DNA of 28,954 nt from a virus. Taxonomy: Duplodnaviria > Caudoviricetes. A program made the position numbers and the translations under genes. Positions 3,952 through 21,216 of the stretch are shown here, one piece after another. The stretch covers positions 1-28,954 of the IMG/VR virus record IMGVR_UViG_3300027732_000093, one strand, 5' to 3'. Within the stretch, counting starts at the first letter, position 1; the number at the start of each line of letters is the position of its first letter. The notes beneath the pieces were generated by a model. The model was not told the DNA's origin and did not search any database. It was given only the letters and a program-made list of their open reading frames with translations.

Positions 3952-5958
3952 TTAATATTGTTCAAATGTACCACCTGCAGCATTTGTAGGAATTGTACCA
4001 CCAGCAGCTGTAACAGAACTAACAACGTAATTAGTTAAAGATGATGTTGAAGTACCAGTTGGAACATGGAATACTAACAAATATTGATCATTATCAAACA
4101 TACCACTTGGATTGTTAAATCTAGGAACACTATGTAAAATCATTACTTGATCATACAAAGAAGTTCTTGAAACATTAGCCAATCCAGGATTTTGTTCAAT
4201 TTCTCTCATCCTTAAGCTTTCTACACGAGAACTATCAGGGTAAGCTAATTGTAAATAACGATCAGAAAGAATTATGTCACGTAATACTGTTTCACCAATT
4301 CCTGAAGCTTGAATAGGAGATTGAATTATTGTATTATCATTTGCAGTTGTGTTAGCTCCAGTGTTGCTATTAGAAGTAGTAAAACAATTTACAGCACAAG
4401 GATCACCAGACTCATCAGTTAATGATGTGTAGATTAACAATGGCTCCAAATCATAGTAATCAGTAGGAGTGAAAGTACAGATACCAAATTTAGTTTCAAT
4501 ATAAGCAGCACTTAATTCAATGTGAGCATCTACAGTGAAGCTAGCAGCATCTGCAGCACCAGAGTAAAGAGCAGCACCATTAGAACCAGCAGCAAGAATA
4601 GTAGCATTAGTTGCAATACCTGCAGAAACTACAGCAGATCCACCAACACCAGTTTGAGTACCAGTACCTGGAATAACTGTAGCAGCACCTAATTGAGGAG
4701 TGTCAACAGCACCAGAATAAAGATCATTATAGAATTTAACACTTACAGTGGCACTAATTGTAGGAGCTGTTTGTTGAGTTGGGTAAGTGACTGTAATAGA
4801 AGTACCAGTAGTAAATGCAGTAATAAAAGCATTAGCTGGGATACCTGTACCAACAACTTTTTGACCAAGTGCAACACCATTTGCAGTTGTAAATGCAGCA
4901 GATCCTAAAACAACAACTGAAGTAGTAGCTGCAGTTACAGTTGAAGTGGCAGCTTGAGTTGTTGACAATTGATATACTCTAGCCTGAACCATTGTATTAA
5001 AAATAAGGCTCAAATTAATTTGATCAGCCCAGTTTAACAATGTTGGAACTGGATCTTTTTGCAATGTAGGATCTACAGTGCTGCAACATCCTGTATAAGA
5101 ATCTAATGTTCTATACATATTATGATCCAAGAAACGTAAAGCTGGAGAACCTTTAACATCAACACGTAATCTGTAAGTACTATCACAAGCTAATCCACAA
5201 GTTACAGGAACCTGAACAACCGTTTGACGAGCTTGTTTAGCTGTAACTTTAATTACACGTGAAACATACTTAGGGTTAATCATTTTAGTCTTAACAGACT
5301 CTTTGTAACCACCAAGAGCAGGACTAATTTTATCACTAGTAAAGTAAGAACCTTGAGCAATGATAAAAGGTTTAGCACTAGCTGCTTGAACAGCAACACC
5401 ATCTGGAGAGAAGAAACCTACTTGACCGGCAGTCAAAGAGTTTGTAGATCCAGAAGATAAAGTAGGAACTGAAATACCAAAAGCAATAGAAGCAGTTGTA
5501 GCAATTGTAGCAGTTACAGAACTAGACAAAGTAACCAATGTAGCAGTAACAGCAGTAACTATTGTACCTGCAGGAATACTTGTACCAGTTACAGACATAC
5601 CAACTGAAACACCAGTAGTAGCAGCAAATTGTAATACATTTGGAGCATTGTAAGAAGCACTTGGTGTAGTAACCAATGGAGTTGTTGGAACACCAATAGT
5701 AATTGCTGTTACACCAGATACTAGTGCAGCAGTAATTGGAAGTGATAATGTAATTTCATTAGTTCCAGGTATTGCTGCAACAACTGTTGTACCAGCTTGA
5801 ATACCAGCACCAGAAACAGACTGACCAGCTAATACACCAGTATCACTAGTTAATGTTATTACTGTACCAATTGTGGTACCTAAAGTGGCTGTTGCAAGTG
5901 TAGTACTTGCTGTTGTTGAAGGAAGAAAGCTCTTCCTAAAGGCATGAGGGAAATACAT
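3952..5958 (-). CDS. Structural protein, probable crAss-like auxiliary capsid protein with inserted beta-rich domains, 668 aa
   Basis: T/A/G/S/V-rich. Core segments KESVKTKMINPKYV, YRLRVDVKGSPALRFL and HSVPRFNNPSGMFDNDQYLL. Lies downstream of the ring-protein homologue, as in crAss-like gene order. Has its own promoter-like motif and terminator. Confidence 0.65.
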   Translation of the reverse strand: MYFPHAFRKSFLPSTTASTTLATATLGTTIGTVITLTSDTGVLAGQSVSGAGIQAGTTVVAAIPGTNEITLSLPITAALVSGVTAITIGVPTTPLVTTPSASYNAPNVLQFAATTGVSVGMSVTGTSIPAGTIVTAVTATLVTLSSSVTATIATTASIAFGISVPTLSSGSTNSLTAGQVGFFSPDGVAVQAASAKPFIIAQGSYFTSDKISPALGGYKESVKTKMINPKYVSRVIKVTAKQARQTVVQVPVTCGLACDSTYRLRVDVKGSPALRFLDHNMYRTLDSYTGCCSTVDPTLQKDPVPTLLNWADQINLSLIFNTMVQARVYQLSTTQAATSTVTAATTSVVVLGSAAFTTANGVALGQKVVGTGIPANAFITAFTTGTSITVTYPTQQTAPTISATVSVKFYNDLYSGAVDTPQLGAATVIPGTGTQTGVGGSAVVSAGIATNATILAAGSNGAALYSGAADAASFTVDAHIELSAAYIETKFGICTFTPTDYYDLEPLLIYTSLTDESGDPCAVNCFTTSNSNTGANTTANDNTIIQSPIQASGIGETVLRDIILSDRYLQLAYPDSSRVESLRMREIEQNPGLANVSRTSLYDQVMILHSVPRFNNPSGMFDNDQYLLVFHVPTGTSTSSLTNYVVSSVTAAGGTIPTNAAGGTFEQY

Positions 5959-6026: not shown

Positions 6027-6491
6027 TTATTTCAAAAATAACAATTTATATTTTACACCATTGATTGTACTCTTAGCATTATCAAGCAAATTTACAATCT
6101 CACTGTGTGGGATTATTGACTGCAAAGCAGTTATTTTATCTTTCATTTTACAAAGAAAGTCTAAAGCATCTTCTACAGAATTAAGTTCAGCTGGAGCTGT
6201 ATTAGGAAGTTCTAATATCTTTTCTTCAGCTCCTTGGTATTCTTCTACAAGATCATCAGCATGATTTCCAAAAGCATCATATCCTTTATTAAGAGCTTTG
6301 TGAGCTGCATAAGATCCAAGTCCTGTCACTTTTAAATGTAGTCTATGTAAACTTGTTACAGCATTCAACATGTCTTGAGCTAAAGCTGCTGTTTGCATAC
6401 ATAATCCACATGTTTCTTGCCCTCCCATAGCAGGTGACATTGGTGTAGGTCCACTGATTGAAAATATACCAGGTCTTTGCAATGATCTCAT
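6027..6491 (-). CDS. Dps-like ferritin-superfamily protein (DUF5856-like), 154 aa
   Basis: HLKVTGLGSYAAHKALNKGYDAFGNHADDLVE equals H-x11-H-x14-D-x3-E, the Dps ferroxidase-centre spacing. The size fits a four-helix bundle. Confidence 0.8.
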   Translation of the reverse strand: MRSLQRPGIFSISGPTPMSPAMGGQETCGLCMQTAALAQDMLNAVTSLHRLHLKVTGLGSYAAHKALNKGYDAFGNHADDLVEEYQGAEEKILELPNTAPAELNSVEDALDFLCKMKDKITALQSIIPHSEIVNLLDNAKSTINGVKYKLLFLK

Positions 6492-6496
6492 ATTAT

Positions 6497-7198
6497 TTAA
6501 CTGTTTGTTTGTACTGCTTGTTGTTCTCTTTGATATTGTGTTATACTTTCTATATCACCAGCCAATATCATTGCTGTATTATCAGCTATAATTTCAGCTA
6601 CATCTTCATTAAATTCACATTCTTGATCAGCTGTATATATAGTACCTGTACTAATATTAACACAACCATTAAATTGAATCTCTTGTGGTTTTCTAAAATA
6701 AATTAGATGACACTCTGGAATTGAAAACTGTTCATTTGTATATACTTTGAGTTTATTACTCATTATAGTAGAAACTGTTTCAGCCCACTCAAAGTTTGGT
6801 TGCTTATCTTTATTGTTTAAAATAATAGATATATTAGCTTCCTCTACCTCATATATAGTCATTCTACGTTTTGGACAACATTCTTTTTCAGCAAAAACAT
6901 CAGATCTTACATAGTGAAGATAATCTACAGGTAAACTAGAAGATTCATAATAAATACCTTTATCTACCATTACAAGTTCTTCATGCTTAAGTAATCTTTG
7001 TAGATCATCTATAAGACCACTAGATTGTTCAGCACCTTCTTTACGAAGATTATAACCATAAAGTTGACGTCTTGTCCACTCTATCTGAGCTTTATTAGCT
7101 GCTTCTTGTATTTGCCAACACTCTAGATTATCATAGTCCAGTGAGGCTAGCTTATTCAGCCTTTGTTTTATTTTAATTTGTAATAAGTTATTATTCAT
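6497..7198 (-). CDS. Putative tail ring / head-tail connector protein (crAss-like), 233 aa
   Basis: The N-terminus KQRLNKLASLDYDNLECWQIQEAANKAQ and the LPxDYL and YFRKP motifs resemble crAss-like ring proteins. Lies downstream of the MCP. Confidence 0.65.
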   Translation of the reverse strand: MNNNLLQIKIKQRLNKLASLDYDNLECWQIQEAANKAQIEWTRRQLYGYNLRKEGAEQSSGLIDDLQRLLKHEELVMVDKGIYYESSSLPVDYLHYVRSDVFAEKECCPKRRMTIYEVEEANISIILNNKDKQPNFEWAETVSTIMSNKLKVYTNEQFSIPECHLIYFRKPQEIQFNGCVNISTGTIYTADQECEFNEDVAEIIADNTAMILAGDIESITQYQREQQAVQTNS

Positions 7199-7199
7199 A

Positions 7200-7442
7200 T
7201 TAACATTTCCATTTTCTTAAAGCTAAAGCTTTTCTTGTAGGTTCACCATTAGGTTTTTTCATAGGTCCTTTCACTCCAGACATTCTAGCACAAAAAGATT
7301 TTTTTCTAGGTCCTCCTTCAGGTTGTGGAGCTTTAAGATTAGATCCAGGATTGGCTGCATTGTAAGAAGCTCTACCTTTAGCATTCAAACCACCACTTGG
7401 TGATTTTCCTTCTTTTCTGGTCCAAGCAGGAGTCTTTGCCAT
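7200..7442 (-). CDS. Small basic protein (DUF6321-like), 80 aa
   Basis: AWTRKEGKSPSGGLNAKGRASYN...RKKSFCARM...ALRKWKC, a widespread phage motif. Confidence 0.8.
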   Translation of the reverse strand: MAKTPAWTRKEGKSPSGGLNAKGRASYNAANPGSNLKAPQPEGGPRKKSFCARMSGVKGPMKKPNGEPTRKALALRKWKC

Positions 7443-7444
7443 AG

Positions 7445-7807
7445 TTATTTCTTTTTAGAAGATTTCTTTACCATTCCACCTTTTTTCATAGTAGCTCCAG
7501 CTATTCTATCAGCTGCTGTAGGTTTAGGATTTTTATCAATTCCTTTCTTTACAGAAAGCATACCAAATGAAGTAGATCCACTTTTAGACATTTTAGGTTT
7601 TTTAGATGTACCTATACTACCACCTTTTTTATAACTATTGGCAGCTTGTGCTTCTGCTTTACTAACACGTGGAGCACCTCTTAAAAAGCCACCAACTGTT
7701 CTTCTAACTTTCATATCTTCAATATCTCCTTTATCACCTAATGTAATTTTAGTTACATAGTTTCTACTATCTTCTTTAAGTTTTATCTTTTTTTTAATTG
7801 CATCCAT
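7445..7807 (-). CDS. Lys-rich protein with YKKGG/MKKGG motifs, 120 aa
   Basis: ORF track. Tightly packed with its neighbours and strongly basic. Confidence 0.75.
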   Translation of the reverse strand: MDAIKKKIKLKEDSRNYVTKITLGDKGDIEDMKVRRTVGGFLRGAPRVSKAEAQAANSYKKGGSIGTSKKPKMSKSGSTSFGMLSVKKGIDKNPKPTAADRIAGATMKKGGMVKKSSKKK

Positions 7808-7808
7808 T

Positions 7809-8141
7809 TTATTTATTTTTAGATTTTACAGATCCACCATTTTTCATTCCACAACTTCCACCTATTTTTTTGTAACCCATTTTGTTTCTTACAGCTGTAG
7901 GAAGTTTAGAAAGACCCACTTTATCAGTAGGTACATTTTTTAAAGAACCACCCATAGCCATTTTAGGTTTTTTACCTGCAGCTTTCATAGCAATAGCAGT
8001 AGCAGCTTGTTTTTTAGATTTTCCTACAGATCCACCTTTTTTCATCATTGAATTTTCCATCATTGATCCATCAGGCATCATGTGCATACCACCCATTCCC
8101 TTTTTAGGTTTTGAAGAACCACCTTTTTTCATACTATACAT
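7809..8141 (-). CDS. Lys/Gly/Met-rich protein with repeated MxxGG motifs, 110 aa
   Basis: ORF track. Contains MKKGG twice, MAMGG and MKNGG. Confidence 0.75.
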   Translation of the reverse strand: MYSMKKGGSSKPKKGMGGMHMMPDGSMMENSMMKKGGSVGKSKKQAATAIAMKAAGKKPKMAMGGSLKNVPTDKVGLSKLPTAVRNKMGYKKIGGSCGMKNGGSVKSKNK

Positions 8142-8153
8142 AATATTTAGTTT

Positions 8154-8291
8154 TTATTTTTTTACACAATTATTATAAGTTTTACCATACATTTTTTTAG
8201 TTCCTTTCTTCTCATATCCTGGCCAACAACTTTTAGCAGTTCCACCTTTTTTCATCTTAAGTATATTAGATGTTTTATTTACTTTTGGCAT
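8154..8291 (-). CDS. Small basic protein, 45 aa
   Basis: Translated by hand: MPKVNKTSNILKMKKGGTAKSCWPGYEKKGTKKMYGKTYNNCVKK. Has MKKGG plus a CWxGY...NCV motif. Starts 1 nt after the upstream stop. Confidence 0.8.
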   Translation of the reverse strand: MPKVNKTSNILKMKKGGTAKSCWPGYEKKGTKKMYGKTYNNCVKK

Positions 8292-8292
8292 A

Positions 8293-8562
8293 TTATCTAT
8301 ACTTTTTAGATTTTTCTTTAGCTGACTTTGGTTGAGCTACAAATTGTTTTCCTTTACTATTACCTAAAGCTTTAGCTTTATTAGTAGCAGCTTTTTCACC
8401 AGCAGATAAAGAACTCCAAGCAGCTTCTGGTAAATATCTCTTAGTTCCTTTAGACTTAACTTCTTTAGAAGATCCTTTCTTCTTATTAGATGCAGTTCCA
8501 GAGGTCATCCATTTTTGATCACCCCAGCTTTTAAGACTTTGTTGAGATTTAGCTAATGCCAT
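8293..8562 (-). CDS. Basic protein, C-terminal half of a DUF5872-like family, 89 aa
   Basis: QQSLKSWGDQKW...RYLPEAAWSSLS...ATNKAK...GKQFVAQPK motifs. Confidence 0.75.
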   Translation of the reverse strand: MALAKSQQSLKSWGDQKWMTSGTASNKKKGSSKEVKSKGTKRYLPEAAWSSLSAGEKAATNKAKALGNSKGKQFVAQPKSAKEKSKKYR

Positions 8563-8741
8563 TATTTATATCCTCCACCTTTTGATTTATATTCTTTAGC
8601 AAGTAGTTGAGCTTTTCTAGCTGACCATTCACCAGGATCACCACCTTTACTTCCAGATTTAATTTTACTAAACAAACCTTTTCTCATTCCAGGATTAGTA
8701 TAATTACCTGCTGCATTAACTTTACTTTTTGCTTTTGCCAT
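8562..8741 (-). CDS. Basic protein, N-terminal half of a DUF5872-like family, 59 aa
   Basis: Translated by hand: MAKAKSKVNAAGNYTNPGMRKGLFSKIKSGSKGGDPGEWSARKAQLLAKEYKSKGGGYK. TAATG overlap with the next gene. Confidence 0.85.
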   Translation of the reverse strand: MAKAKSKVNAAGNYTNPGMRKGLFSKIKSGSKGGDPGEWSARKAQLLAKEYKSKGGGYK

Positions 8742-8970
8742 TTTTATAAGGATTTTCTTTATGCCATTTCTTAGTAGCTGCTATACCTTGTGCAACTGTT
8801 TTAGCTTTAGCTTTTTGTGTAAGATCTATAGTATCCCATTTACCTTTATTCTTAGTGGGGTGGTTTACCATTATATGACCTTTCTTTCCTTCTCCTACAC
8901 CTGTAGCACTTTCTTTTTTGTACACTACATGTTTTTCACCACCAGCTGAAATTTTAGTTTTCTTAGCCAT
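8722..8970 (-). CDS. Small Lys-rich protein, 82 aa
   Basis: ORF track. Starts 1 nt after the carbonic anhydrase stop. Confidence 0.75.
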   Translation of the reverse strand: MAKKTKISAGGEKHVVYKKESATGVGEGKKGHIMVNHPTKNKGKWDTIDLTQKAKAKTVAQGIAATKKWHKENPYKNGKSKK

Positions 8971-8971
8971 T

Positions 8972-9940
8972 CTACTTAGGTAATCCTGCTTTAAATGTTG
9001 TTGTTAAATCAGAAAATGCACCAGTACCAACACCAGTTGTTGTCCACTTCTTAAATGTATTTACATTTATATAAGCTTCATATCTATCATCTACATTTAT
9101 AAATGTACCACTACAGAAAAATACGTCTTTATTAAGCCCAGCTATATTTTGTATACCTGTAGCACCAATTAAAAATGTTTCACCAGCAACTCTTAATATT
9201 TCTGTAGCCACTACCATTTTAGCAGGGGTACCTGTAGCTGCAGTAAGCAATGCTCTATTAGTTACTGATGCTAATATATTAGTTATATAAAACTGTTGAT
9301 AATCATTATCTGGAAAAGCTACAGATGGAAAAGTTGGTAATCCAGCATTAGCAGCCACCCAAGTGATAGCTGCAAGTACAGCACCACATGAAGTATTTAA
9401 AGTTGTTTGTCCTCTACGTAAACTTTGCCCTACCACTCCACTTTGTGATATACCTATGTGAGGCATATTAATTACAAACAAAGCTCCTGTATCAGTAACA
9501 TGACTAGCAAAAGCTCCTAATCCTGTAATACCTGTATGAGGGTAACCAGCTAAACCACCAGAATAAAAAGGTCCAAGAAACTCATTCATTGAAATTGGTC
9601 CTTGACCTATATTATCTACATCTACAAAACTTGGTCCATTTAAATCATCAGCACAAGCTGAGATTGAAGTAACCATATTATTTGCAGCATATCCTAAATT
9701 CTTTAAAAATAATTTAGTGTAGTCTACAAATGATTGAGCTGATACAGCATCAGAATATGTAATTCTAACTGTATTAGTATATGAAGATGGATTTCTAAAA
9801 TCTGTATTTTCATTAATCACTTCAATCCACTCTCCTGGTTTAGGATTCTTATATGCAAAAGTTAATGTACCAGCTGCAATATCTCCAGCTGGTTTACGAA
9901 GTACATAAGGCTTTTTAGGCTTGGTATTATAACTTCTCAT
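8972..9940 (-). CDS. LCIB-like (theta-class) carbonic anhydrase with N-terminal extension, 322 aa
   Basis: Motifs SACADDLN, GPFYSGGLAGYPHTGITGLGAFASHV, PHIGISxxGxVG, RRGQ and SCGAV match the LCIB/C fold. The Cys-His-Cys zinc ligands are present. Confidence 0.85.
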   Translation of the reverse strand: MRSYNTKPKKPYVLRKPAGDIAAGTLTFAYKNPKPGEWIEVINENTDFRNPSSYTNTVRITYSDAVSAQSFVDYTKLFLKNLGYAANNMVTSISACADDLNGPSFVDVDNIGQGPISMNEFLGPFYSGGLAGYPHTGITGLGAFASHVTDTGALFVINMPHIGISQSGVVGQSLRRGQTTLNTSCGAVLAAITWVAANAGLPTFPSVAFPDNDYQQFYITNILASVTNRALLTAATGTPAKMVVATEILRVAGETFLIGATGIQNIAGLNKDVFFCSGTFINVDDRYEAYINVNTFKKWTTTGVGTGAFSDLTTTFKAGLPK

Positions 9941-9948
9941 TTTTTAAA

Positions 9949-10092
9949 TTATTTTTTATTTTTAGCCATTTTTTTAAATGTCATAGCAAGAGCTTTCCTT
10001 TTAGGAGTACAAGTAGATTTAGTCATTGGTGTACAAAAACCCTTATGAGCAGGATTAACAGCTTTTTGAATCCAGTTTTTGTCCTTTGCCAT
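9949..10092 (-). CDS. Small basic protein, 47 aa
   Basis: Translated by hand: MAKDKNWIQKAVNPAHKGFCTPMTKSTCTPKRKALAMTFKKMAKNKK. Fills the gap exactly. Confidence 0.8.
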   Translation of the reverse strand: MAKDKNWIQKAVNPAHKGFCTPMTKSTCTPKRKALAMTFKKMAKNKK

Positions 10093-10095
10093 ATC

Positions 10096-11112
10096 TTATT
10101 GATTCCAATGTTTTTCAATCTTTTTAGTAAGATCTACAAGAATTTCTTCATTCAATGGATTTTTTAAATACTCCACTACATCTGTTAGGTTACGGCCCAT
10201 CAAAGTAGTGGTAGCCATATGATAGATAAATCCATCTGCTTTTGTAGAAATATATTTATAATAATGGCTTTCTTTTACCAAAGCTTTAATCTTTAATGAT
10301 TCCATATCAAGATTAACTGCTTCTATAAATCTTTCAGCTGTTTTCTTTTTATTCTTTTCTACGGCTTCACCGTTGATATACTTATCCATATTATCATAGA
10401 TGATATCATTTGGAGTAGACTTCTTGTACTGAGCACCATTTACGTCTAGTGTCTTAGCAACATAGAATAACTTATTCTGATTTTTATCAAATAACTTTTG
10501 AAGTTCTGAAAGAGCTTTGTTTCTAAGTTTTTTAATTTCTGTATTAATAGATGCACTTTCTTCTAATCTATCTAAATAAAATTTAGGAGGTGTTGGCATT
10601 TTACGTGCTTCATCCAAAGACTTAGCTACTATTGAAAAACCACCAGCTTCAATTGCATATAATCTAATAAGATCATAAGGATCTGTAGCAGGTTCTAAAT
10701 GCACTGGTTCATTACCACATCTAATTTTTATCTTATCCCAAAAATCACTATTGTTTTGTTTAAGTAAAACAATCTTATTCCAAAAATCTTTATCTTCAGG
10801 ATCCACCATATTGGCTGCAAGTTCTTTTTCTAACTGAGCAACTACAATACGAATTTGTTTAATTTTAGCTTCTTGTTCATCCAATGGAAGAGCTTTAACA
10901 TCCGGAGCATATTCATTTAAACCAGTAAGGTATCTTTTAATACCATTGATTTCTAAACAAGCTATACTCTCTTCATGAAAAGCACCATCAAAAAGACTTA
11001 ATCCGTATTTTTGAAGTCCCATATTATCTACTTGAGAATCAAAATAAGGACGGATTGCAATACTAGATTTTTTGTTTTGTGGATACTTTTCCACGATAGT
11101 TACACTACTCAT
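10096..11112 (-). CDS. Conserved crAss-like capsid-module protein downstream of MCP, 338 aa
   Basis: ORF track. Size and position match the conserved gene that follows MCP in crAss-like phages. C-terminal MGRNLTDVVEYLKNPLN motif. Confidence 0.65.
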   Translation of the reverse strand: MSSVTIVEKYPQNKKSSIAIRPYFDSQVDNMGLQKYGLSLFDGAFHEESIACLEINGIKRYLTGLNEYAPDVKALPLDEQEAKIKQIRIVVAQLEKELAANMVDPEDKDFWNKIVLLKQNNSDFWDKIKIRCGNEPVHLEPATDPYDLIRLYAIEAGGFSIVAKSLDEARKMPTPPKFYLDRLEESASINTEIKKLRNKALSELQKLFDKNQNKLFYVAKTLDVNGAQYKKSTPNDIIYDNMDKYINGEAVEKNKKKTAERFIEAVNLDMESLKIKALVKESHYYKYISTKADGFIYHMATTTLMGRNLTDVVEYLKNPLNEEILVDLTKKIEKHWNQ

Positions 11113-11149
11113 TGGTTTTTTGGTTTTTTATATGTAAAATTATAAGCAA

Positions 11150-11172
11150 TATACCGGAAATATTCCGATATA
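11150..11172. repeat. 10-bp inverted repeat (operator or hairpin)
   Basis: TATACCGGAA-ATA-TTCCGATATA, with one G.U pair on the minus strand. Intergenic. Confidence 0.6.
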
Positions 11173-11178
11173 ATATAA

Positions 11179-11409
11179 TTAATCTAACAATTTTGAAATC
11201 AAACTTCTTTCAGTAAGATCTTCTGCATTTTTTTGTGCTCTTTCCTCAGCTCTTGTTATTTCTCTATCTGTAAATAATATACAACGTTTGTTAGCTCCAT
11301 CCCAGTCAGATACCCATATAGCAATATAAGTATCATTTTCATGAGTGAATGATTTAGTCTTAGTATTTTTAACTCTAAGAAGTCTTCCTAAACGTGTAAG
11401 TATTTCCAT
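11179..11409 (-). CDS. Hypothetical protein, 76 aa
   Basis: ORF track. TAATG coupling to the upstream gene. Confidence 0.75.
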   Translation of the reverse strand: MEILTRLGRLLRVKNTKTKSFTHENDTYIAIWVSDWDGANKRCILFTDREITRAEERAQKNAEDLTERSLISKLLD

Positions 11410-11864
11410 TAATCTCCTATTTTAACTATTTCATAATTAAGATATACAGTGGTCCAAGCTGTTGTTCCACTAAGCTGAGCAATTCTAACAGCAATACTAC
11501 CATTTGCAGTAATTGGTGCAATAGTAGCTATAGAGTTAATACTTGCATGAGCTACACTAACTTGTACAAAATATTTATCTACATCAGCTAAAAGTAACTC
11601 AGAGTCACTAAGAGTGATTGTTAATGTACCTGTATTAGAAGTGGTAATTTTAACTACACCTTTTTTAGTAGTGATAGCTTGTGTTCCTGTAGCTGCTGCT
11701 GTTAAAGCAAGAGTGTATAAAATTTGATCATTAAGATCTCTAGATAAAGCATTTGTATCTGAAAGTCTAGCAAATGTAGATTGTTTATATCTAGCTGCTC
11801 CTGCAGCTTTAATATTTTTATCAGGAGAACTAGGATTTTGTATTAATCTTTTAAGAGCAGCCAT
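11409..11864 (-). CDS. Putative capsid decoration/head-fibre protein, 151 aa
   Basis: A helical N-terminus is followed by a T/A/I-rich beta domain. Lies just downstream of MCP. Function is inferred. Confidence 0.55.
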   Translation of the reverse strand: MAALKRLIQNPSSPDKNIKAAGAARYKQSTFARLSDTNALSRDLNDQILYTLALTAAATGTQAITTKKGVVKITTSNTGTLTITLSDSELLLADVDKYFVQVSVAHASINSIATIAPITANGSIAVRIAQLSGTTAWTTVYLNYEIVKIGD

Positions 11865-11897
11865 GGATTATATATTTTAAAATGTTTAAGTAATTGA

Positions 11898-11976
11898 ACC
11901 TAATAAGGACTGCAAATCCTTCATCCGATCAAGATGGTGTGCATACTATAGGTGGTCTAAGGATACTATCCTTAGA
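11898..11976 (-). ncRNA. Candidate structured cis-regulatory RNA (hairpin plus 3-way junction/pseudoknot)
   Basis: A 9-bp perfect hairpin at 11956-11976. Stems ACCUA/UAGGU, CAUCU/GGAUG and AAGGAU/GUCCUU, with G.U pairs that form only on the minus strand. Confidence 0.45.
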
Positions 11977-11983
11977 TTGGGTA

Positions 11984-12211
11984 TTATTTCTTTCCTTTTG
12001 AGCTGCCACCAATATTCATCTTAGTCATTGCTGACTTAGGAGCAGAAGATTGGACAACACCTTTACCTGCATTTAAACCAACAAATACACCTTTAGAGCC
12101 AGGAGTTGTTTGAACAGAAACTTTTGCATTTCCACCACCAGTACGTCCTGTAGCTTTATCTTGTGCAGATTTAATAGCAACAGATTTTGGAGTGTTAGGA
12201 TTACCAGCCAT
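11984..12211 (-). CDS. Small basic Gly/Lys-rich protein, 75 aa
   Basis: ORF track. Ends in MNIGGSSKGKK. Confidence 0.7.
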   Translation of the reverse strand: MAGNPNTPKSVAIKSAQDKATGRTGGGNAKVSVQTTPGSKGVFVGLNAGKGVVQSSAPKSAMTKMNIGGSSKGKK

Positions 12212-12242
12212 GTTGTATATATTTAAATATTAAAAATAATAT

Positions 12243-12282
12243 AAAAAGACTCAGGTGCTGATCTTACGGTAAGCACCTGAGT
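12243..12282 (-). terminator. Terminator/stabilising hairpin after MCP
   Basis: An 11-bp stem ACTCAGGTGCT/AGCACCTGAGT followed by CUUUUU on the minus strand. Confidence 0.75.
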
Positions 12283-12292
12283 ACTATTATAA

Positions 12293-13912
12293 TTAGAATG
12301 ATCCACCAGTTACTGGGTTTCTCATAACGATCTTCAACACTTTAGTTGGATCCTTAACCCAGATAGCAGGCATTGTTTGTGTCATAAATACTCTGTAACC
12401 ATTGAAGTTGCCACTAGACTGGAAGCCTTGTGTACGACCCATATAGTCCATTGTACCATTTTGATAGAACCATTTCAATTGATTATCCCAGCTTAATTTC
12501 AACAAGAAGATGTTGTCATTAGTATTATCTGTGATATCAAAAATAATGAAATTGTATGAACTTAATGGGAAACCATCAATAATTGGATTCTCAATATCAT
12601 TTGTATGTACATTATCAAAAGCTGGATTCAATACAAACTTAACGTTAGCTAAGAATGGTATGATGTAGCTAGTGTAAGCAAATCCAAAGTTTAAGTCCAT
12701 TCCAGTACCAGTTACAGCACCAAGCTCATGAGCATTAAGAACAAGACCAGAGTTAACTGCTTCTTTCTTAATTGCTTCATTAACAAGCTTCATACCACCC
12801 ATACCAGTTTGTACAATCAAAGCACGTTGAGGATCTGGTCCTTTGAATTCAACTTTACCATTAAAGAAGTTGAAAATTTCAGATTTGAAAAGATCCAAAT
12901 TAAAAGATGCTTTGTTATATATACGTTTGTAAGAGTTATCTAATTGCTTCCAAAGACCAACTGATAAACGAATATCATCTGGACCATCTTGTCTAACTTT
13001 ACCACCTTGTCCCCACATTAAGTAAGTTTCGATGTCATTAGCAATTTTAGTCAAATGAGCTGCTTCTAAAGTAGTCAAGAAAGAACGTGTAAGCTGACCA
13101 TTTGCATAAGCCTTCTTAACGTAATCTTTACCCATTTTATCAGCCATTGTTTCCAAGTTAGTGATAGATGGATCTACATTCTTATCGAAGTTTCTCCACA
13201 TTTCAATTACTGGAACTGTACCATCAGCTTTCATACCACCTTTCATCATCAAGTCAGCACGACTAGAAATAGAATAGTGAACGTGAGCTTCTGCTCCTCC
13301 TACATAGTTGTAGAATTCACGGAAACCAGCAGATACATTACCAATGTCAGAAAATCTTTCTCCGTATTCTCCACGAGCAGAACCTTTACGGAAAACCTTA
13401 GTACCAATTTTAAGATATTTGTTATCCAAATACTTAGTGTTGTCGTTGTTTACCAACTGTACTGTGTAAATGAAACCGTCACCAGCTGGGATAATATCAT
13501 CCACTGTGATGTACATTTCCACACCATTGTACTTGTCATAAGTGATGATGTCACCATGACCAAATGAACGCTTGTTTAATTTAATCTTGAAGGTTTGTCC
13601 ATCAACACCTTTTGTAGCATTAGATGATTCAATATCTTCAACGATGTAAGGAAGATCCTGAGCAACAGGAATCTGCCATTTGTACTCACCACGGTTATTA
13701 TCTACTGAAATAACGTTCTTACCACCAAAAGATGACATTTGATACAAAGGCATTTCTACTTTTTGTGCCATTGCCCAAAGATCTACTGGACCTAAATCTG
13801 TAGGTTCAGCTGACTTAAGGAGGTTAGAAAGGTGGTACGAATCTACGTGTGAACTTGTGTTATACACATTGTCACGTAGGAAAATACCATTGTTTAAAAC
13901 TGGGGTTGCCAT
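12293..13912 (-). CDS. Major capsid protein (crAss-like), 539 aa
   Basis: Size, position after the portal and acidic scaffold-like gene, codon usage typical of a highly expressed gene, and a downstream terminator. Segments YLMWG, GLWKQL and VKFVLNPAFD are similar to crAss-like MCPs. Confidence 0.85.
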   Translation of the reverse strand: MATPVLNNGIFLRDNVYNTSSHVDSYHLSNLLKSAEPTDLGPVDLWAMAQKVEMPLYQMSSFGGKNVISVDNNRGEYKWQIPVAQDLPYIVEDIESSNATKGVDGQTFKIKLNKRSFGHGDIITYDKYNGVEMYITVDDIIPAGDGFIYTVQLVNNDNTKYLDNKYLKIGTKVFRKGSARGEYGERFSDIGNVSAGFREFYNYVGGAEAHVHYSISSRADLMMKGGMKADGTVPVIEMWRNFDKNVDPSITNLETMADKMGKDYVKKAYANGQLTRSFLTTLEAAHLTKIANDIETYLMWGQGGKVRQDGPDDIRLSVGLWKQLDNSYKRIYNKASFNLDLFKSEIFNFFNGKVEFKGPDPQRALIVQTGMGGMKLVNEAIKKEAVNSGLVLNAHELGAVTGTGMDLNFGFAYTSYIIPFLANVKFVLNPAFDNVHTNDIENPIIDGFPLSSYNFIIFDITDNTNDNIFLLKLSWDNQLKWFYQNGTMDYMGRTQGFQSSGNFNGYRVFMTQTMPAIWVKDPTKVLKIVMRNPVTGGSF

Positions 13913-13942
13913 AGGGCTTAAAATTTAAGGGTTAATAATTAA

Positions 13943-15208
13943 TTATCTTTTAAAAATATTTTGAGGTTTAGCTATTTTTTTTGATTTTTGATTGTCATCT
14001 TCTTCTTGATAAGTAGAAACATTTTTACGAGATTGTTCTGTTTTAAGTTGTCTCACTGTTTGTTCTACTGCTTGGTTCTTTCCTTGTTTCATTAAATTAC
14101 CACGGTATTCATCAGGATTAGAAAGTAACCAAAGAGCTTCAGCAATTAAAGGATAGTCAGGTTCTACAAACTGATACTTCTCTAAAAGGTGTCCTAATAA
14201 ATTAGTAGGTTTACCTGATATAGAAGGATATTGTGGTTGAACAAGTCCGCTATATAATTGAGCTTGAACTTTTTTATCTAACTTAAGACCATTAATTTCT
14301 GCTGGTCTTAAAGCTTCAAATACATTTCTTTGATATGTATCTGCTGCTACTTGTTGTTGTTGTTTTCTATATTCTTGTTCTTGCAATTGAGCAATAACAA
14401 TTTTTTCTTGCATTTGATCCAACTTTGGTTTGAATTGTTTAGCTTTCTTTTCTAAAACTCCAATATCTTTCCAAGTTGTAAGTTCTTCATCAATCTCATC
14501 AGTTGTACCAAAGTTACTTGCTTGTAAATATGAACGAACAATTTGTTCTTGATCATACTCATCTGAAGGATCTAATTCTCTAACTTGTTCTGTAGCAGCT
14601 AAAGCTTGAAATAAACCTTTAAGATCTTGTCCTCCATCTGCTACATATTTAGCAGCATATTGAAGTTCTTCTGGAAGACTTTGAAAAAACTCAGCAGGAG
14701 TTGATGCAGCCACTTCATTTTTAATATTGCTAACATTAGCTTGCCAAAGTTCTTCAACATCTTTTTCAGCAAGTCCACTTAAATAATCATCAAGTGATTG
14801 TTTGTTTTCATCATAGTCATCAAATGCAAACATTTCATTTGACTCTATTCTTTTCTTTAAAAATTCTACTAGTCCAGACTTTTCTGTCCTTGGTCTTCCT
14901 TTTTTAGGTTCATCATCAAACTCAGGTACTACACCTTCATCTAAGATTTCATTTAATGCTTCTTTTAATTCAGGTTTACTATCTACATTATTTGTAGTTG
15001 AATTAAAAGTACTAACATTATCAACTTTAGGATCATTATCTAAAAAATCTAAGTTAGTTTGTTTTTTACTAAAGATATTAGCTTTAATTTCTGTAGGAGC
15101 ATCTGTTGGAGTAACTATGTTACTTGCTGCAGGAGCTCCGTCAAATAAACTATCAATATCTAAATCTACTTGTTGTACAGATGTTTGTACATTTTGATTA
15201 TCAGCCAT
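13943..15208 (-). CDS. Acidic coiled-coil protein upstream of MCP (putative scaffold), about 421 aa
   Basis: ORF track 13943..15253. The start was moved to the ATG at 15208 (MADNQN). D/E/Q-rich. Sits between portal and MCP. Confidence 0.7.
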   Translation of the reverse strand: MADNQNVQTSVQQVDLDIDSLFDGAPAASNIVTPTDAPTEIKANIFSKKQTNLDFLDNDPKVDNVSTFNSTTNNVDSKPELKEALNEILDEGVVPEFDDEPKKGRPRTEKSGLVEFLKKRIESNEMFAFDDYDENKQSLDDYLSGLAEKDVEELWQANVSNIKNEVAASTPAEFFQSLPEELQYAAKYVADGGQDLKGLFQALAATEQVRELDPSDEYDQEQIVRSYLQASNFGTTDEIDEELTTWKDIGVLEKKAKQFKPKLDQMQEKIVIAQLQEQEYRKQQQQVAADTYQRNVFEALRPAEINGLKLDKKVQAQLYSGLVQPQYPSISGKPTNLLGHLLEKYQFVEPDYPLIAEALWLLSNPDEYRGNLMKQGKNQAVEQTVRQLKTEQSRKNVSTYQEEDDNQKSKKIAKPQNIFKR

Positions 15209-15310: not shown

Positions 15311-18061
15311 TTATTTTTTCTTTTCTTTAGGTTTTGGTGCATCATATTTATTCTTATTTTCTACAGCTATTTGAAGTTGTTTGTCTGCTATAGTTTGTTG
15401 AGCTTGTAACTTTTCTCTTTCTATATTATGTTTGTCTGTAGTTTGAGCAGTTCTATTTATTTCTTGCTCTCTTTTAAAATTCATAGTTTGTTGATATTCA
15501 TCCTGCTTTCTAATATTATTCATAGCATCTTGATAATCAGATTGTTGATTTTGGTTAATATCAACCTGAGCACCATATCCAGCAGCTCTAATTTCAGCTT
15601 CAGTGATTTTAGTTTGTCTATCTTTAGCAGACTCTTCAGCTTTAAATTGATTAGCAGCTTGTAATTGTTGTTGAGCAGCTTGAATTTGTTCTTGTTGCAT
15701 TTGTTGCTGATGCTGTTGTTCTTCTTGTCTTTGAGCATTAACTTTTTCTTCAGAAGCTTTAAGAACACCAGTAAGTTCAGCAATTGATTCTGATTTAATT
15801 ATATTACCAAGATCATATATAGAAGCACCAGTGGCATTATTATTAAGTGCCAACTGTTTAAGTTGCTCCATCATTGCACGAGAATTTGTTTTAGTTGTAC
15901 AGAATATATTCATATCTCTAAGAAGAAGATCAGTTCCATTCATTTGAAAATTAATTTTTTCATCAGCTCCTGTAATATACTGAAGACGAAGACTAGGTTT
16001 TTTAGAATGATAATACTGAGCAAGATCAGTTCTCATTTGATGTACTCTAGGCATTAAATTATCACTATGCTGTATAAAGTATTGTTCTGTCTGTGCATAA
16101 GAAGCATTAGCAGCTTGTTCTACACCGGTAGCAGTTTGCTGTTGAGATATCTGCATACCCATACGTTGTTGATTAAGTCCTATTACTTCAAAAGCTTGAG
16201 TTTTAAAATACGTACCTAATTGTATTCTAGAAAGCAAACGTTGTGTTTGTTCTAGATTTAACACTTGATAGTGTTGAAAATTAAGAGCATTCTCAGTGTT
16301 AGTTATAGAAGTATCTAACGGTAACATTTGAAAATTCTTCATAGCAACATAGGCTTTAGCCAGATTATTTTTACCCCAGTCTTCTCCCAATGAGTGACGT
16401 GGTAAAGCATTCTGGTCTAACATGATAACCGTGCCTAGCTCATCTACGAGAATATCTGCAATTTGGTTATTCACTATATTATAGCCTATTTGATATGGTT
16501 TCATTAGATCTACTAATGAAACAGAACGTGTATTTCTATCTCCAAACACTGATCCTTCTACAGGAAGTTTACATCCATAAATAGTAGCATCTCCTTTAAA
16601 TTGAAATGGAACTCTACCTGGACGACCACCATTTAGTCCTAAATAAATAGGATTGATACCTCCTGGGTTATTCATACCCCAGAAAGCTGGACGGTTAGGT
16701 CCTATTTTAACTCCACCCCATACCTCATTAATCCAAATCCAATCTATATGTTCACCAAAAGCTAAATTATCTTTTGTTTTTTCTTTCCAAATAGATGTAT
16801 CATATTCTGGTTTATCAGTTATTTTATATTCTTCTGATATTATATCTTGAATAATATCTCCATTTTGAGTTATTTTTGTAAGATGTCCAACTTTTCTTTG
16901 ACTTTTCCAATAGATTGTTGAAACCCTGAGCATGTAACTTTTACCAAAGTCTTGCAAGTCTTCTGAGTCAGATAGTATCCATTGTACAATATCTCCAAAT
17001 TGACTTCCGGCATCATACAAAGAAGTAAATTGTCTATAAGCCAAAGAAGGCATTTGAGTGTTCCATTCATGAGATCTAGTAGGGTCATAGTATGTTCCGT
17101 CATTTTGATATCCTTGTATTGCATATCCAGCAGAACGTGCCGGATATATTGCTTCTAAAGCTTCTAATTGTTCTTCAGTCATCATCCATCCAAACTTATC
17201 TACAACATCTGATATAGACATCATATCAAGTTTACCCACCCAATTACCCTGAGATATATAACGTACATCTGGACTCTTATGATAGAATGTAAGTAGGGGA
17301 TTCCATAGTTCAACATCATAGTCATCTTCCATCATACTAAAATGCCAAAACTCTCTATCAGTAATTAACATATCACGAAAAGCTCTTTCTTCTAGCTCTT
17401 GCATTTTAAATCTTTCCTCATCTACAGACATTTGATGGGTGGCCCATTCTTCAACCATAGATCTATAATCTTTTTTAAAGAAAGCTTCTATTTCAGGAAG
17501 AGTTTTAAGTGCTTCAGGAGACATTTGTTTTTTGGCATCTTCACTATTAGGATCAAGTCCCATTTCAGCCATAATAGCCATTTGTTTTTGTTCAGCTTGT
17601 TGCATCAATGTTTTTTCAATCATTGATCTTTTTTCTTCTAACATTTCATTATATGACATGTCATCTACAGCTCTAAACATCACTCTAGATGATCTCTTAG
17701 AAAATTCATTAGTAAGAACATTAATTACATTAGGAATAATAGGATAGAACTTAAGCTCAAATGCAGATACATCTTCTTTAGTGAGTGTATCTATTAAATC
17801 ACCCATCTCATTATCTTCCTCCACTATATAATCTTGCTTATCTATAATACCCTTAGCTAGTTTATAGTTTTTCATTAGACGTCTAGCATTACGTCTAAGT
17901 TGTTTCATGCCTTGAAACTCTAACCAGTCAAGGTTCCATGCCCTCCACTGATCATCTTTTTCTTTTTCAGAAACAAACTGAAACGGTTGTATAAGAGTAC
18001 CCATCTTGTTGTACTCTACTTTAGCTCCAGCTTTTAATTGTAAGGCATTATATATTTGCAT
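15311..18061 (-). CDS. Portal protein (crAss-like), 916 aa
   Basis: Large protein downstream of TerL with YPIIPNVINVLTNE, WIWINEVWGG and SLVDLMKPYQIGYNIVNNQI motifs, and a Q-rich coiled-coil C-terminus. Confidence 0.85.
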   Translation of the reverse strand: MQIYNALQLKAGAKVEYNKMGTLIQPFQFVSEKEKDDQWRAWNLDWLEFQGMKQLRRNARRLMKNYKLAKGIIDKQDYIVEEDNEMGDLIDTLTKEDVSAFELKFYPIIPNVINVLTNEFSKRSSRVMFRAVDDMSYNEMLEEKRSMIEKTLMQQAEQKQMAIMAEMGLDPNSEDAKKQMSPEALKTLPEIEAFFKKDYRSMVEEWATHQMSVDEERFKMQELEERAFRDMLITDREFWHFSMMEDDYDVELWNPLLTFYHKSPDVRYISQGNWVGKLDMMSISDVVDKFGWMMTEEQLEALEAIYPARSAGYAIQGYQNDGTYYDPTRSHEWNTQMPSLAYRQFTSLYDAGSQFGDIVQWILSDSEDLQDFGKSYMLRVSTIYWKSQRKVGHLTKITQNGDIIQDIISEEYKITDKPEYDTSIWKEKTKDNLAFGEHIDWIWINEVWGGVKIGPNRPAFWGMNNPGGINPIYLGLNGGRPGRVPFQFKGDATIYGCKLPVEGSVFGDRNTRSVSLVDLMKPYQIGYNIVNNQIADILVDELGTVIMLDQNALPRHSLGEDWGKNNLAKAYVAMKNFQMLPLDTSITNTENALNFQHYQVLNLEQTQRLLSRIQLGTYFKTQAFEVIGLNQQRMGMQISQQQTATGVEQAANASYAQTEQYFIQHSDNLMPRVHQMRTDLAQYYHSKKPSLRLQYITGADEKINFQMNGTDLLLRDMNIFCTTKTNSRAMMEQLKQLALNNNATGASIYDLGNIIKSESIAELTGVLKASEEKVNAQRQEEQQHQQQMQQEQIQAAQQQLQAANQFKAEESAKDRQTKITEAEIRAAGYGAQVDINQNQQSDYQDAMNNIRKQDEYQQTMNFKREQEINRTAQTTDKHNIEREKLQAQQTIADKQLQIAVENKNKYDAPKPKEKKK

Positions 18062-18202: not shown

Positions 18203-20425
18203 TTATCTTATATTTTTAAAAGCATTACGAGAAGGTCTGGTCATACCATTATTTTTACCAGAACTACCAATATGCCTAAAAGGACTATAATTTAATTTAC
18301 TAAATTTTTGTGAGTTATCCAAGTTTTTATTTGTAACTTCTATACGTTTAGATAATCCTCTATTAGATTGCTGTACCTTGGCAAAAGCTACAAGTGAACA
18401 GAATGCTACCAATCTATCCACGTTTAATCCTTCTTGGTAAGCTTGCATTTCTTTTAAAAGCATTGGATCAGGAATTCTTTCCACCCCATATATAACTTTA
18501 GTAATGGTACCATCTACATCTGTTTCCTGATCTATTTCTTCTTGTAAGAACTCAATACCATATGATAACAAGTTTCCTTTAAAAAGAGTTCCTACGTTTT
18601 TCCATCCATATTCTTGGAATACATTTCGGTTAGCTCCAATATCTTTTAAAAATAAAATCATATCTTTAGGAACTAAGTATCTTTGTTTCTTCTTAGATAT
18701 CATGTATTGAATAAATAAAGCTACGTTATTCTCCACTAAAGCCCAGGCATTATACCATTCAATCATTATCTCTAGACGTTCATGAGTTTTATTAATATCA
18801 TCAAACCTACCACACCATGAAGCAACTATAGCATCTCTTTCAATAGAGTTTTCAACTTTACCATTTCCCTCATCTTTTATAACTTCTACTGAGTTTTTAA
18901 GAATGTATATACTACATAATGAATCAGATGTAGTTGTTTTACCTTCTCCTACAGGATCAATTGATGCATAGTACATACCAAATGTCGGATTTTTACAAGG
19001 ACGTTCATATACACATATTACTCCTTCTTTATCATCAGACTTTCTACTTATAGGAAACTCCCTAATTGGAGCTTTTCTAGAAACCTTATCTACAATTTTA
19101 CCTTCAGCATCTCTTGTAAGTTCCAGATATTCAACAGGATATGCTTTATCTTCTATACGTTGTAATTGTTTAGAAACAAGATGAGGAGGAAATACAGATT
19201 CTTTTCTAGTAGCAAATGCTTCCTCTATGCATGTTGGTTTCTGAGATATACGAAGTTGGTATTGATCAGGAGGAAGATCTTTATACCATTGTTTACGTTC
19301 TTCAAATATAGCTTCTAAAGCTTCTTTAACTAAAGAGTTACCAGCTTCATCTATATAAGGAGGCATTGACCACTGCTCTGGTATAAACAAACCAGTTTCT
19401 CCTATAGTGCCTTTTTTATCTAATAAATTACTTGTAATAGCAAACATCCCATATCTATTAGGATGTAGTATCATATCTTTTAAAGGTTGGCATTGTTCAA
19501 GATCACCTACAGAACCAGCTGCTATAAACGTACCTGTAGTCACCATACCAGATTGCATAGCTGGTCTCATAAACTCATATGTATCCATCATCTTAGGAGC
19601 AATACCTGCCTCCTCATGAAAGAAGTATGTTACAGGTCCACCCACACCATTAGTTGGATCTTTCTCAAATGATGTACCTGTAATGATAGATTTATTACCC
19701 CTGTAGGTATCTCTTCCTCCAATCCTGACCTTTATTCTTTGTTGCCATGAGAATATCTTATCAGGTTCAGATGGTCTGTACCAGGCTGTATGTTCGTTAA
19801 GGAAATTTCTATATTCATTAAGCATCCTCCAAGATCCTTTCTCAGAAATATAATCTTTAAGACTAGCTCCTATTTTATTTACAGAACCTTCTTCAAACCA
19901 ATAAGCATTGATTAGTTTGGCCATGTGAAAATAAGAAGAAGCTATCTGACGTTTCTTTAGAATAGGAAGATGTTTATAATATAGTTCACCAAGACATTCG
20001 TACAAAGCCATATGATACTGAGCATCTCTCACTTTAGCAAAGTCAAAACGTTTTTCTTCTTTGTCATAAATTGGTAAAAAGTTAAGCCACATGTAATAGT
20101 CTCTAGTGACATACCATGTTTTTTCTTCTTCTTTATAAATAACTCCCCATCTACATTTAGATTTTTGTTCATCCCAATAAGCCATAAAGTCTTTACTCTT
20201 TAATGGAGCTTGACAATAATATCCTTGTTTTTGAAATTTTCTAGCTTCAATATTAAATTGCTTAGATATTTCCACAGTTAGACCATATCCCTCATCAGGA
20301 CCGGCATCTTTAAATATAGAACGTATAAAATCAATAAACTCTTCACGTGTATAAAATGTTGTTAGATCCCACACACCATTATCATAAGTAGGTATTTCTA
20401 TATAGTAATTACTTAATTTATTCAC
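18203..20425 (-). CDS. terL: Terminase large subunit, 740 aa
   Basis: Walker A-like LKKRQIASSY, Walker B FFHEEAG, coupling motif GSVG, and RNase H-like nuclease motifs SIDPV, VENN and NVDRL. Confidence 0.9.
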   Translation of the reverse strand: MNKLSNYYIEIPTYDNGVWDLTTFYTREEFIDFIRSIFKDAGPDEGYGLTVEISKQFNIEARKFQKQGYYCQAPLKSKDFMAYWDEQKSKCRWGVIYKEEEKTWYVTRDYYMWLNFLPIYDKEEKRFDFAKVRDAQYHMALYECLGELYYKHLPILKKRQIASSYFHMAKLINAYWFEEGSVNKIGASLKDYISEKGSWRMLNEYRNFLNEHTAWYRPSEPDKIFSWQQRIKVRIGGRDTYRGNKSIITGTSFEKDPTNGVGGPVTYFFHEEAGIAPKMMDTYEFMRPAMQSGMVTTGTFIAAGSVGDLEQCQPLKDMILHPNRYGMFAITSNLLDKKGTIGETGLFIPEQWSMPPYIDEAGNSLVKEALEAIFEERKQWYKDLPPDQYQLRISQKPTCIEEAFATRKESVFPPHLVSKQLQRIEDKAYPVEYLELTRDAEGKIVDKVSRKAPIREFPISRKSDDKEGVICVYERPCKNPTFGMYYASIDPVGEGKTTTSDSLCSIYILKNSVEVIKDEGNGKVENSIERDAIVASWCGRFDDINKTHERLEIMIEWYNAWALVENNVALFIQYMISKKKQRYLVPKDMILFLKDIGANRNVFQEYGWKNVGTLFKGNLLSYGIEFLQEEIDQETDVDGTITKVIYGVERIPDPMLLKEMQAYQEGLNVDRLVAFCSLVAFAKVQQSNRGLSKRIEVTNKNLDNSQKFSKLNYSPFRHIGSSGKNNGMTRPSRNAFKNIR

Positions 20426-20772: not shown

Positions 20773-21216
20773 TCAACAACAACCACTACCTGGTTTACAA
20801 GAAGTATTTTTTATTTTTGTAGTAGGTATACCACAATGATCTTTAGCTAAACAATCTGTTTGTTTTGCAGTTAATAAAAAATTATCTCCATTAAAATCTA
20901 AACCAAATCTATTTATTGTTTCTGCTTGATATTCTATTTCAACATTTAAATCTTCATTACCAAAAAGTGGTTGTGCAGATATAATAATATTTTGAAGTTT
21001 TTGTGGTTCAAGTCTGTGTTCAAAATCATCTGCCACCCATAATTGAAGACTAACATTTTTTTCCATTCTAATAGTTCCTCCACAATCTATAAAATGTTTT
21101 GTATTTAAACCAGCTTCAGTAATGTGAAAATGCCTTGGCACAAAATTACCATTTGGTTGAATAAAGTTTAATTGAGATATACTCTTTAAATGTTGTTTAA
21201 ATTCTGATAATTTCAT
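20773..21216 (-). CDS. DUF6428-family protein (Bacteroidota arsenic-operon-associated), 147 aa
   Basis: MKLSEFK...VPRHFHITEAG...FIDCGG...QLWVADDFEHRL...EIEYQ...TDCLAKDHCGIP...CKPGSGCC, recognised by eye. Confidence 0.85.
   Translation of the reverse strand: MKLSEFKQHLKSISQLNFIQPNGNFVPRHFHITEAGLNTKHFIDCGGTIRMEKNVSLQLWVADDFEHRLEPQKLQNIIISAQPLFGNEDLNVEIEYQAETINRFGLDFNGDNFLLTAKQTDCLAKDHCGIPTTKIKNTSCKPGSGCC

Follow-up and report, generated by a model that had tools for sequence, protein, structure and literature searches.

The lake-water or freshwater crAss-like phage analysed here encodes a 322-amino-acid protein that joins a carbonic anhydrase domain of the LCIB/theta family to a short N-terminal module found on many unrelated proteins. 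Both this architecture (the fusion to the module) and its setting in a phage are new for a PF18599 enzyme; in the literature we searched, mostly papers accessible without subscription, neither an LCIB/theta enzyme from a phage nor a carbonic anhydrase borne on virions is described. By analogy with the head fibre gp29 of phage crAss001, we regard it as probable, with modest confidence, that the product is a dimeric enzyme, active and attached to the capsid. The LCIB/theta domain, with a complete set of active-site residues, sits behind a portable module of 35 residues with predicted self-pairing; the enzyme, itself probably a dimer, would use the paired module to attach to the capsid exterior as an optional decoration. 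If so, a metabolic enzyme would act outside, on phage particles, and not in the infected cell, a logic unlike that of the usual auxiliary metabolic gene. The features of the gene are given below by their positions in the window, i.e. the whole 28,954-nucleotide stretch of DNA that was analysed.

8972..9940, minus strand: gene for the 322-aa fusion of module and LCIB/theta carbonic anhydrase (ATG start, Pfam, PDB sequence matches, Foldseek)
9812..9919, minus strand: portable N-terminal beta-strand module, aa ~8-43, a predicted self-dimer and putative virion anchor
9053..9745, minus strand: LCIB_C_CA (PF18599) domain, aa 66-296 (Pfam profile)
9647..9655, minus strand: C96-A97-D98, comprising the first Zn ligand, a small residue at the PtLCIB4 Ser47 position and a conserved Asp (alignment)
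9500..9502, minus strand: H147, equivalent to PtLCIB4 His88 when residues are counted from S47R in the 5b60 alignment
9458..9460, minus strand: H161, second Zn ligand (alignment)
9416..9418, minus strand: R175, invariant Arg of the RRG motif (alignment)
9386..9388, minus strand: C185, third Zn ligand (alignment)

Family, fold and active site of the enzyme

Sequence and fold both assign the product of ORF 8972-9940 to PF18599. It matched the LCIB_C_CA profile with an E-value of 1.1e-32 and 113.6 bits (cut-off 25), and its PDB sequence matches were diatom and algal members of the LCIB family (6kfs, the best at E 9e-23, 9vzj and 5b5y). An AF2 model of the monomer, built with 33 sequences as input (mean pLDDT 78), was aligned by Foldseek to PtLCIB4 (5b5y) over 267 columns with E 7e-15, a target TM of 0.82 and an rmsd of 3.3 Å, and beta-class enzymes appeared only at E ≥ 0.01. 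Profile and structure searches had both been proposed by the sequence-only reading, which named an LCIB-type motif set with Cys/His/Cys as Zn ligands; in the alignments, C96, H161 and C185 indeed fall on the C/H/C motifs found in the diatom proteins. The model is weak (pLDDT < 50) at aa 97-119 and 122-136, which adjoin the active site, so that it does not establish the active-site geometry.

The closest known enzymes are the LCIB/theta proteins PtLCIB4 (5b5y, 5b60, 5b5z), 6kfs, 9vzj/9w05 and Chlamydomonas LCIB/LCIC (5k5w, 5b5x). With them the phage enzyme shares the fold (target TM 0.82 to both 5b5y and 6kfs), the C/H/C ligand motif, counterparts of the Asp, the Arg and His88, and the GGLAG and RRG motifs, yet the identity in the structure alignment is only ~24-25%. 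Unlike the known LCIB/theta enzymes, it is phage-encoded and has a portable N-terminal module, an insertion of ~10 aa and a histidine at position 135.

In the 5b60 alignment, counted from the S47R position, C96, A97, D98 and H147 correspond to C46, S47, D48 and H88 of PtLCIB4, and the remaining H, R and C motifs are matched by H161, R175 and C185. We followed these positions in 223 distinct homologues of at least 270 aa, many of them closely related to each other: C96 is kept in 222, and D98, H147, H161, R175 and C185 in all 223, while position 97 is Ser in 196, Ala in 27 and never Arg. Judged from these alignments, the phage enzyme retains every residue for which a PtLCIB4 active-site counterpart was identified. 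Enzyme and module are under purifying selection. In the enzyme part, dN was lower than dS in 9/9 pairs of the window with a homologue and in 6/6 pairs from other groups; in the module the same held for 8/9 window-versus-homologue pairs, the ninth pair being identical.

Jin et al. reportedly found in 2016 that PtLCIB4 has activity, which is reduced by S47R and by H88A. According to a review, in the part of it available, no activity was seen for three crystallised LCIB homologues, so that intact motifs are no proof of catalysis (PMC5876011). Catalysis and its effect are the weakest step of the reading that we favour: the enzyme may be active, in which case it would speed CO2/HCO3-/H+ exchange at the particle. 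At a guess, the benefit would most plausibly come from control of local pH or of anions at the cell surface, or at the particle, bound by the virion.

In our estimate it is distinctly unlikely that the protein decorates the virion with a carbonic anhydrase fold repurposed for another task. Here the Zn site would bind or hydrolyse a target other than CO2, be it an anionic group on host surface polymers or a substrate of COS/CS2-type chemistry, which is known for other beta-CA-fold enzymes. Two features that set the phage clade apart from the diatom proteins would suit such a change, namely the near-invariant His135 (221/223 homologues; Phe in the diatom proteins) and the insertion of ~10 residues after the first Cys; moreover, some inactive LCIB-family proteins have been proposed to be structural, as stated in the available part of the review (PMC5876011). 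The retention of every PtLCIB4 active-site residue, including the counterparts of His88 and Ser47, speaks against it. The phage clade offers small soluble members for asking which residues make the LCIB/theta family active.

The N-terminal module

Residues 1-45 lie outside the Pfam domain and constitute a separate portable module, as anticipated from the sequence alone for a ~45-aa N-terminus outside the catalytic motif set. In the AF2 model, aa ~8-43 form three predicted strands (pLDDT ~85), and the module has no hydrophobic stretch of the signal-peptide type. A 40-position module profile, searched against 1.84 billion representatives, matched 729 clusters at E ≤ 1e-3. Among the best 150 of these 729 matches, the module starts within the first 20 residues in 149, the exception (P0177) being a repetitive false match; a tandem module pair is present in 77, and the 126 tails of at least 40 aa fall into 52 clusters. 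A Pfam partner at E ≤ 1e-4 was found in 31 of the best 150 and none in the other 119. The partners were Fib_succ_major (FISUMP; 11), BspA LRR (5), LamG3 (4), DUF285 (3), other LRR (2), Lcl_C (2), Ig (1) and YDG (1), some of these matches falling below Pfam's own cut-off. Fib_succ_major, LRR, LamG, DUF285 and Ig-type domains mark phage surface and fibre proteins. The earlier suggestion that the N-terminus resembles modules of decoration-like proteins in related phages, to be followed up by searching residues 1-45 alone for unrelated fusions, is supported by many unrelated adhesion-type fusions (the 52 tail clusters; Ig, LamG, LRR, FISUMP and DUF285 partners) and by predicted self-pairing. Within the best 150, all Pfam-named passengers other than the carbonic anhydrase are binding or repeat domains and none is an enzyme, which counts against the favoured reading and in favour of a repurposed Zn site.

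Self-pairing was predicted with two copies of window aa 6-44, which gave a pairing score of 0.50 compared with 0.02 for the best of three controls; in calibration, the mark was reached by 20/30 one-chain-pair structures versus 1/23 single-chain structures. The runs agreed in 100% of contacts at pLDDT ≥ 86, and the predicted interface uses the conserved residues Y11, V13, I21, G24, L26 and V41. This modelling supports the view that the module is a two-fold self-pairing unit and that tandem proteins would form the same unit from one chain.

The module had no clear match in the family and structure collections that we searched. Against Pfam and PHROGs nothing fell below E 0.08, and module profiles against PDB sequences reached at best E 0.5 and 0.8. 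A tandem-module model (pLDDT 85) gave no Foldseek match at E ≤ 0.001 and a best VIA Z of 2.3, which by itself indicates neither a new nor a different fold. A short-protein word search with window aa 5-47 yielded no candidate; the profile search did detect short module proteins. In 50,697 GenBank phage records, module proteins found nothing better than E 0.7-0.9 and the enzyme had no match, so that no cultured phage or virion proteome was usable.

Close relatives without the enzyme encode a stand-alone protein of ~90 aa with two repeats, which hhalign aligned to the module at 96% probability and E 1e-9. We found it in 158 viral stretches, and in none of the 80 kept was the enzyme within 6 kb. 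An ESM Atlas search with the 91-aa tandem protein gave a best score of 0.82 and no family. This protein is a candidate minimal capsid decoration protein, without family or fold match. In most enzyme-less relatives the tandem gene ends the late gene run (L125-L134 and L165-L244; e.g. L131:1480-1755). Labels of 'holin-like' and 'spanin-like' for its neighbours were discarded; these genes had no PHROG match, and the labels reflected their position beside endolysins.

In the available part of the crAss001 structure paper (PMC10172136), gp21 is described as a trimeric head fibre whose residues 1-38 bind hexon pockets, and gp29 as a dimeric head fibre whose residues 1-58 bind hexon pockets and whose C-terminus is Ig-like. 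Like gp29 and gp21, the module protein consists of a short N-terminal unit and a variable passenger, is predicted to be oligomeric (a dimer) and belongs to a crAss-like phage. Unlike them, its module is without detectable sequence homology to either (hhalign probability 0.1-0.9% with single gp29 and gp21 sequences), and its passenger is an enzyme domain whereas that of gp29 is Ig-like. Capsid binding has been shown for gp21 and gp29; for the module protein we infer it. The gene for gp29 lies among lysis genes, and so do the module fusions of two other loci (L021 and L120). By analogy, the module fits the role of gp29 in size, passengers, predicted dimer state and neighbourhood, and the paired module may be a capsid-docking foot, analogous but not homologous to the 58-residue anchor of dimeric gp29. 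If this is true, the module would be the missing head-fibre-type anchor, given that the authors of the crAss001 structure, in the part of the paper available, expect unrecognised head-fibre analogues in other crassvirus groups (PMC10172136). The anchor candidate would then be a self-pairing unit that matches 729 clusters, belongs to no family in Pfam or PHROG and might serve as a display tag.

Genomic setting and host

The window has the crAss gene order of capsid protein, portal, terminase and ring gene (PF23898; phrog_6547, phrog_6681, phrog_29507; gp33-like gene). The genes that define the setting of the enzyme are as follows.

18203-20425, minus strand: terminase large subunit (PHROG profile)
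15311-18061, minus strand: portal (PHROG profile)
12293..13912, minus strand: crAss-type major capsid protein (PF23898, E 2.5e-33)
10096..11112, minus strand: conserved 338-aa gene (gp338), by hhalign a probable homologue of crAss001 gp33 (probability 62%, E 7e-5), bordering the slot upstream
7200..8970, minus strand: variable cassette of small Lys/Arg-rich genes (23-27% K+R; including DUF6321) in the same insertion slot
6497..7198, minus strand: probable tail ring protein resembling gp34/gp35, bordering the slot downstream (match to phrog_29507, labelled virion structural, at E 5e-7)

The claim that the gene sits in the capsid block stands in part. It lies in a late block, with terminase large subunit, portal and major capsid protein upstream and the probable ring protein downstream (the latter a weak match to crAss001 gp34, with 191 columns aligned), but its direct neighbours are the gp33-like gene and small Lys-rich genes, not known capsid proteins. 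The main text of the crAss001 structure paper, whose mass-spectrometry table may also bear on gp33, does not mention gp33. Comparison did not support either gp338 or a 668-aa gene as the auxiliary capsid protein gp36. A promoter and terminator scan found no excess over shuffles.

To survey the slot we took the 80 closest gp338 loci, 73 of which extend over the full interval as far as the ring gene. It contains the enzyme in 5 of these 73, and 56 have no ORF of at least 50 aa there. In 16 of the first 17 enzyme loci the gene lies downstream of gp338 (the remaining one, L005, is too short to tell), and one locus, L037, is without the enzyme despite capsid and gp338 proteins 99% identical to those of the window. 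In another set (L018-L027) the enzyme gene ends the late gene run beside an endolysin, and the capsid protein of one genome in that set shares 91% identity with the window's. The enzyme gene is therefore optional and mobile, and its location among structural genes is weak evidence by itself, because the slot is an insertion hotspot, mostly empty, that takes many unrelated small genes. The earlier argument from position to a virion role is weaker than it was put, same-clade copies lying beside lysis genes.

Several other genes of the window deserve mention. Small genes of 75-120 aa, rich in Lys/Arg (16-27% K+R) and poor in acidic residues, form a changing set at 7200-8970 and 11984-12211; they include DUF6321, travel with the enzyme in two crAss-like lineages and are possibly DNA-binding core proteins. 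The conserved 668-aa late protein (3952-5958) has homologues of 395-691 aa, which differ by inserted Thr/Gly-rich segments; it has no gp36 or PDB match and is likely a structural protein with variable domains. Directly after the ring gene, a DUF5856 protein (6027-6491; PHROG label starvation-inducible regulator) is conserved, and it also occurs near the enzyme in a distant crAss-like lineage. A GNAT acetyltransferase gene (24397-24828) adjoins an HU/IHF-like gene (23611-24048). The first 2000 positions are GC-richer (44%) and have repetitive frames and no listed ATG-started minus-strand ORF, and they probably belong to a collagen-like fibre gene that runs off the window end.

We infer a Bacteroidota host from the crAss affinity together with the start sites, of which only 3/25 have a Shine-Dalgarno-like tetramer and 19/25 have A at -3. 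Few Shine-Dalgarno-like starts and A at -3 are the Bacteroidota pattern. The heterotrophic host named by the sequence-only reading is likewise putative. A photo- or chemo-autotrophic host such as a cyanobacterium, whose CO2-concentrating mechanism the gene would feed during infection, appears very improbable. It would accord with the best cultured-phage match of the capsid protein, Leptolyngbya phage Lbo-JY46, and with the fame of the family, which is best known from algal CO2 concentration (PMC5876011 and PMC7215798, as far as available, the latter also for the definitions of the carbonic anhydrase classes). However, that capsid match has 29% identity, which is uninformative on the host, and the other capsid-protein matches were Cellulophaga and gut crAss phages; the start sites point elsewhere, and a scan of 32 window proteins showed no photosynthesis gene. 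A DUF6428 gene (20773-21216; E 4e-56), immediately upstream of the terminase region, looks host-derived and might help in host assignment.

Distribution of module and enzyme

All 10 genomes that are at least 90% complete and have the window-type capsid protein contain a module protein; 3 of them were reached via module or enzyme and not via gp338, so that the unbiased count is 7/7 (those found through gp338 alone). In the 3 near-complete enzyme carriers (G006, G010 and G039) the enzyme is the sole module protein found, and the 7 near-complete genomes without the enzyme have the tandem protein or other module fusions. Exclusivity in this clade thus rests on three complete enzyme-bearing genomes and is not strict, as additional module genes lie no more than 10 kb away in 21/74 enzyme loci. 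In the favoured reading, the enzyme would be made late and would take the site that an adhesin fusion or the tandem protein on its own would otherwise fill.

The enzyme matched 191 protein clusters, nearly all of 309-332 aa among the 120 matches listed, and its profile found 74 viral loci and 249 metagenome matches, 80 of the latter being kept. A pattern scan of 185,579 prokaryote genomes met the clade only on one 1.6-kb MAG contig (one further marginal match failed the Pfam check), and no theta-type viral model turned up in BFVD at E ≤ 0.001. Within the reach of these searches, the enzyme clade is therefore phage-specific. Nine lake or freshwater metatranscriptome runs of a set of 24 contain at least a fifth of the words of window 6400-14000 (the 15 with a word share under 0.2 were unused); in one, a single contig spans 8027-11873 and includes the whole enzyme gene with no difference, which is presence in an RNA library; contigs neither establish transcription nor allow genes to be ranked by expression.

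The module is present in 213/223 enzyme homologues; of the 10 others, 6 have another leader at the N-terminus, and the module-less set includes second, leaderless paralogues in two loci (L269 and L276). These figures bear on a more conventional account, which we hold to be somewhat unlikely: an ordinary late auxiliary metabolic gene whose product is cytoplasmic, provides bicarbonate for the host carboxylases that serve the synthesis of pyrimidines, purines and fatty acids or steadies the pH while particles are being made, and bears the module as a dimerisation or localisation tag from a neighbouring gene. Such a role would explain a catalytic residue set that is intact and under purifying selection, and is compatible with a gene that is optional, lies in an insertion hotspot and has leaderless paralogues; self-pairing is, moreover, the only predicted property of the module. 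Phage carbonic anhydrases from three classes, alpha, beta and gamma, have already been reported as auxiliary genes, and share with ours a viral carbonic anhydrase gene and fresh water, but no theta class and no virion-module fusion is named in the part of that preprint available (bioRxiv 10.64898/2026.01.21.700432). Yet a cytoplasmic enzyme would hardly keep the module so widely and under purifying selection, or have another leader in most cases where the module is missing; it has no need for repeated fusion to leaders that otherwise bear Ig, lectin and LRR domains, and the aligned diatom family members are without such a leader. Even on this ordinary account, the LCIB/theta class, mainly algal so far, extends to a widespread phage-specific clade.

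Among the viral loci, 67/74 have the module on the enzyme, including those of a distant crAss-like lineage whose capsid protein shares 25% identity with the window's. The 7 module-less loci belong to a myophage lineage (four) and to a large phage (three), for which one record is 203 kb long and has no crAss-type capsid match. The myophage gene order is head protease, major head protein, PhoH, enzyme, head-tail adaptor and tail sheath, and the enzyme has either of two leaders, each of which also starts neighbouring genes of 67-776 aa. In the large phage, one enzyme has a leader of 130 aa and a second paralogue is leaderless. Neither the myophage leaders nor those of the 203-kb phage had a PHROG match at 1e-5 or a Pfam match at 0.1, and an ESM Atlas search with the 130-aa leader (L269) gave TM ≤ 0.41 and no usable lead; a virion role for these leaders is thus our suggestion only. 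In quick trees, sequences grouped by lineage, and those of the myophage and the 203-kb phage were placed among crAss-like rows; a single clade of 21 crAss-like rows versus 6 others was not rejected (p-AU 0.72), and hence we claim no donor lineage. Tentatively, and at less than even confidence, one phage-specific theta enzyme may repeatedly have been fused to different virion-docking leaders by freshwater phages with three or more unrelated kinds of virion. The crAss-like leader, found in all complete genomes examined, would be an exchangeable, self-pairing capsid foot, and free particles would then carry an active CO2/bicarbonate enzyme on their exterior, away from any cell.

Two arrangements in these other lineages are worth recording. 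In the myophage head region (L267:6621-11247, L271:5678-6982, L275 and L277), genes of 67-73 aa consist almost only of the leader and adjoin an enzyme gene with the same leader, the two alternative leaders occurring in close relatives. The large phage (203 kb, G043) has two tandem theta-CA genes (L269:9617-11683 and L276:9614-11738), of which the leaderless one is more divergent, an arrangement that recalls the LCIB/LCIC pair.
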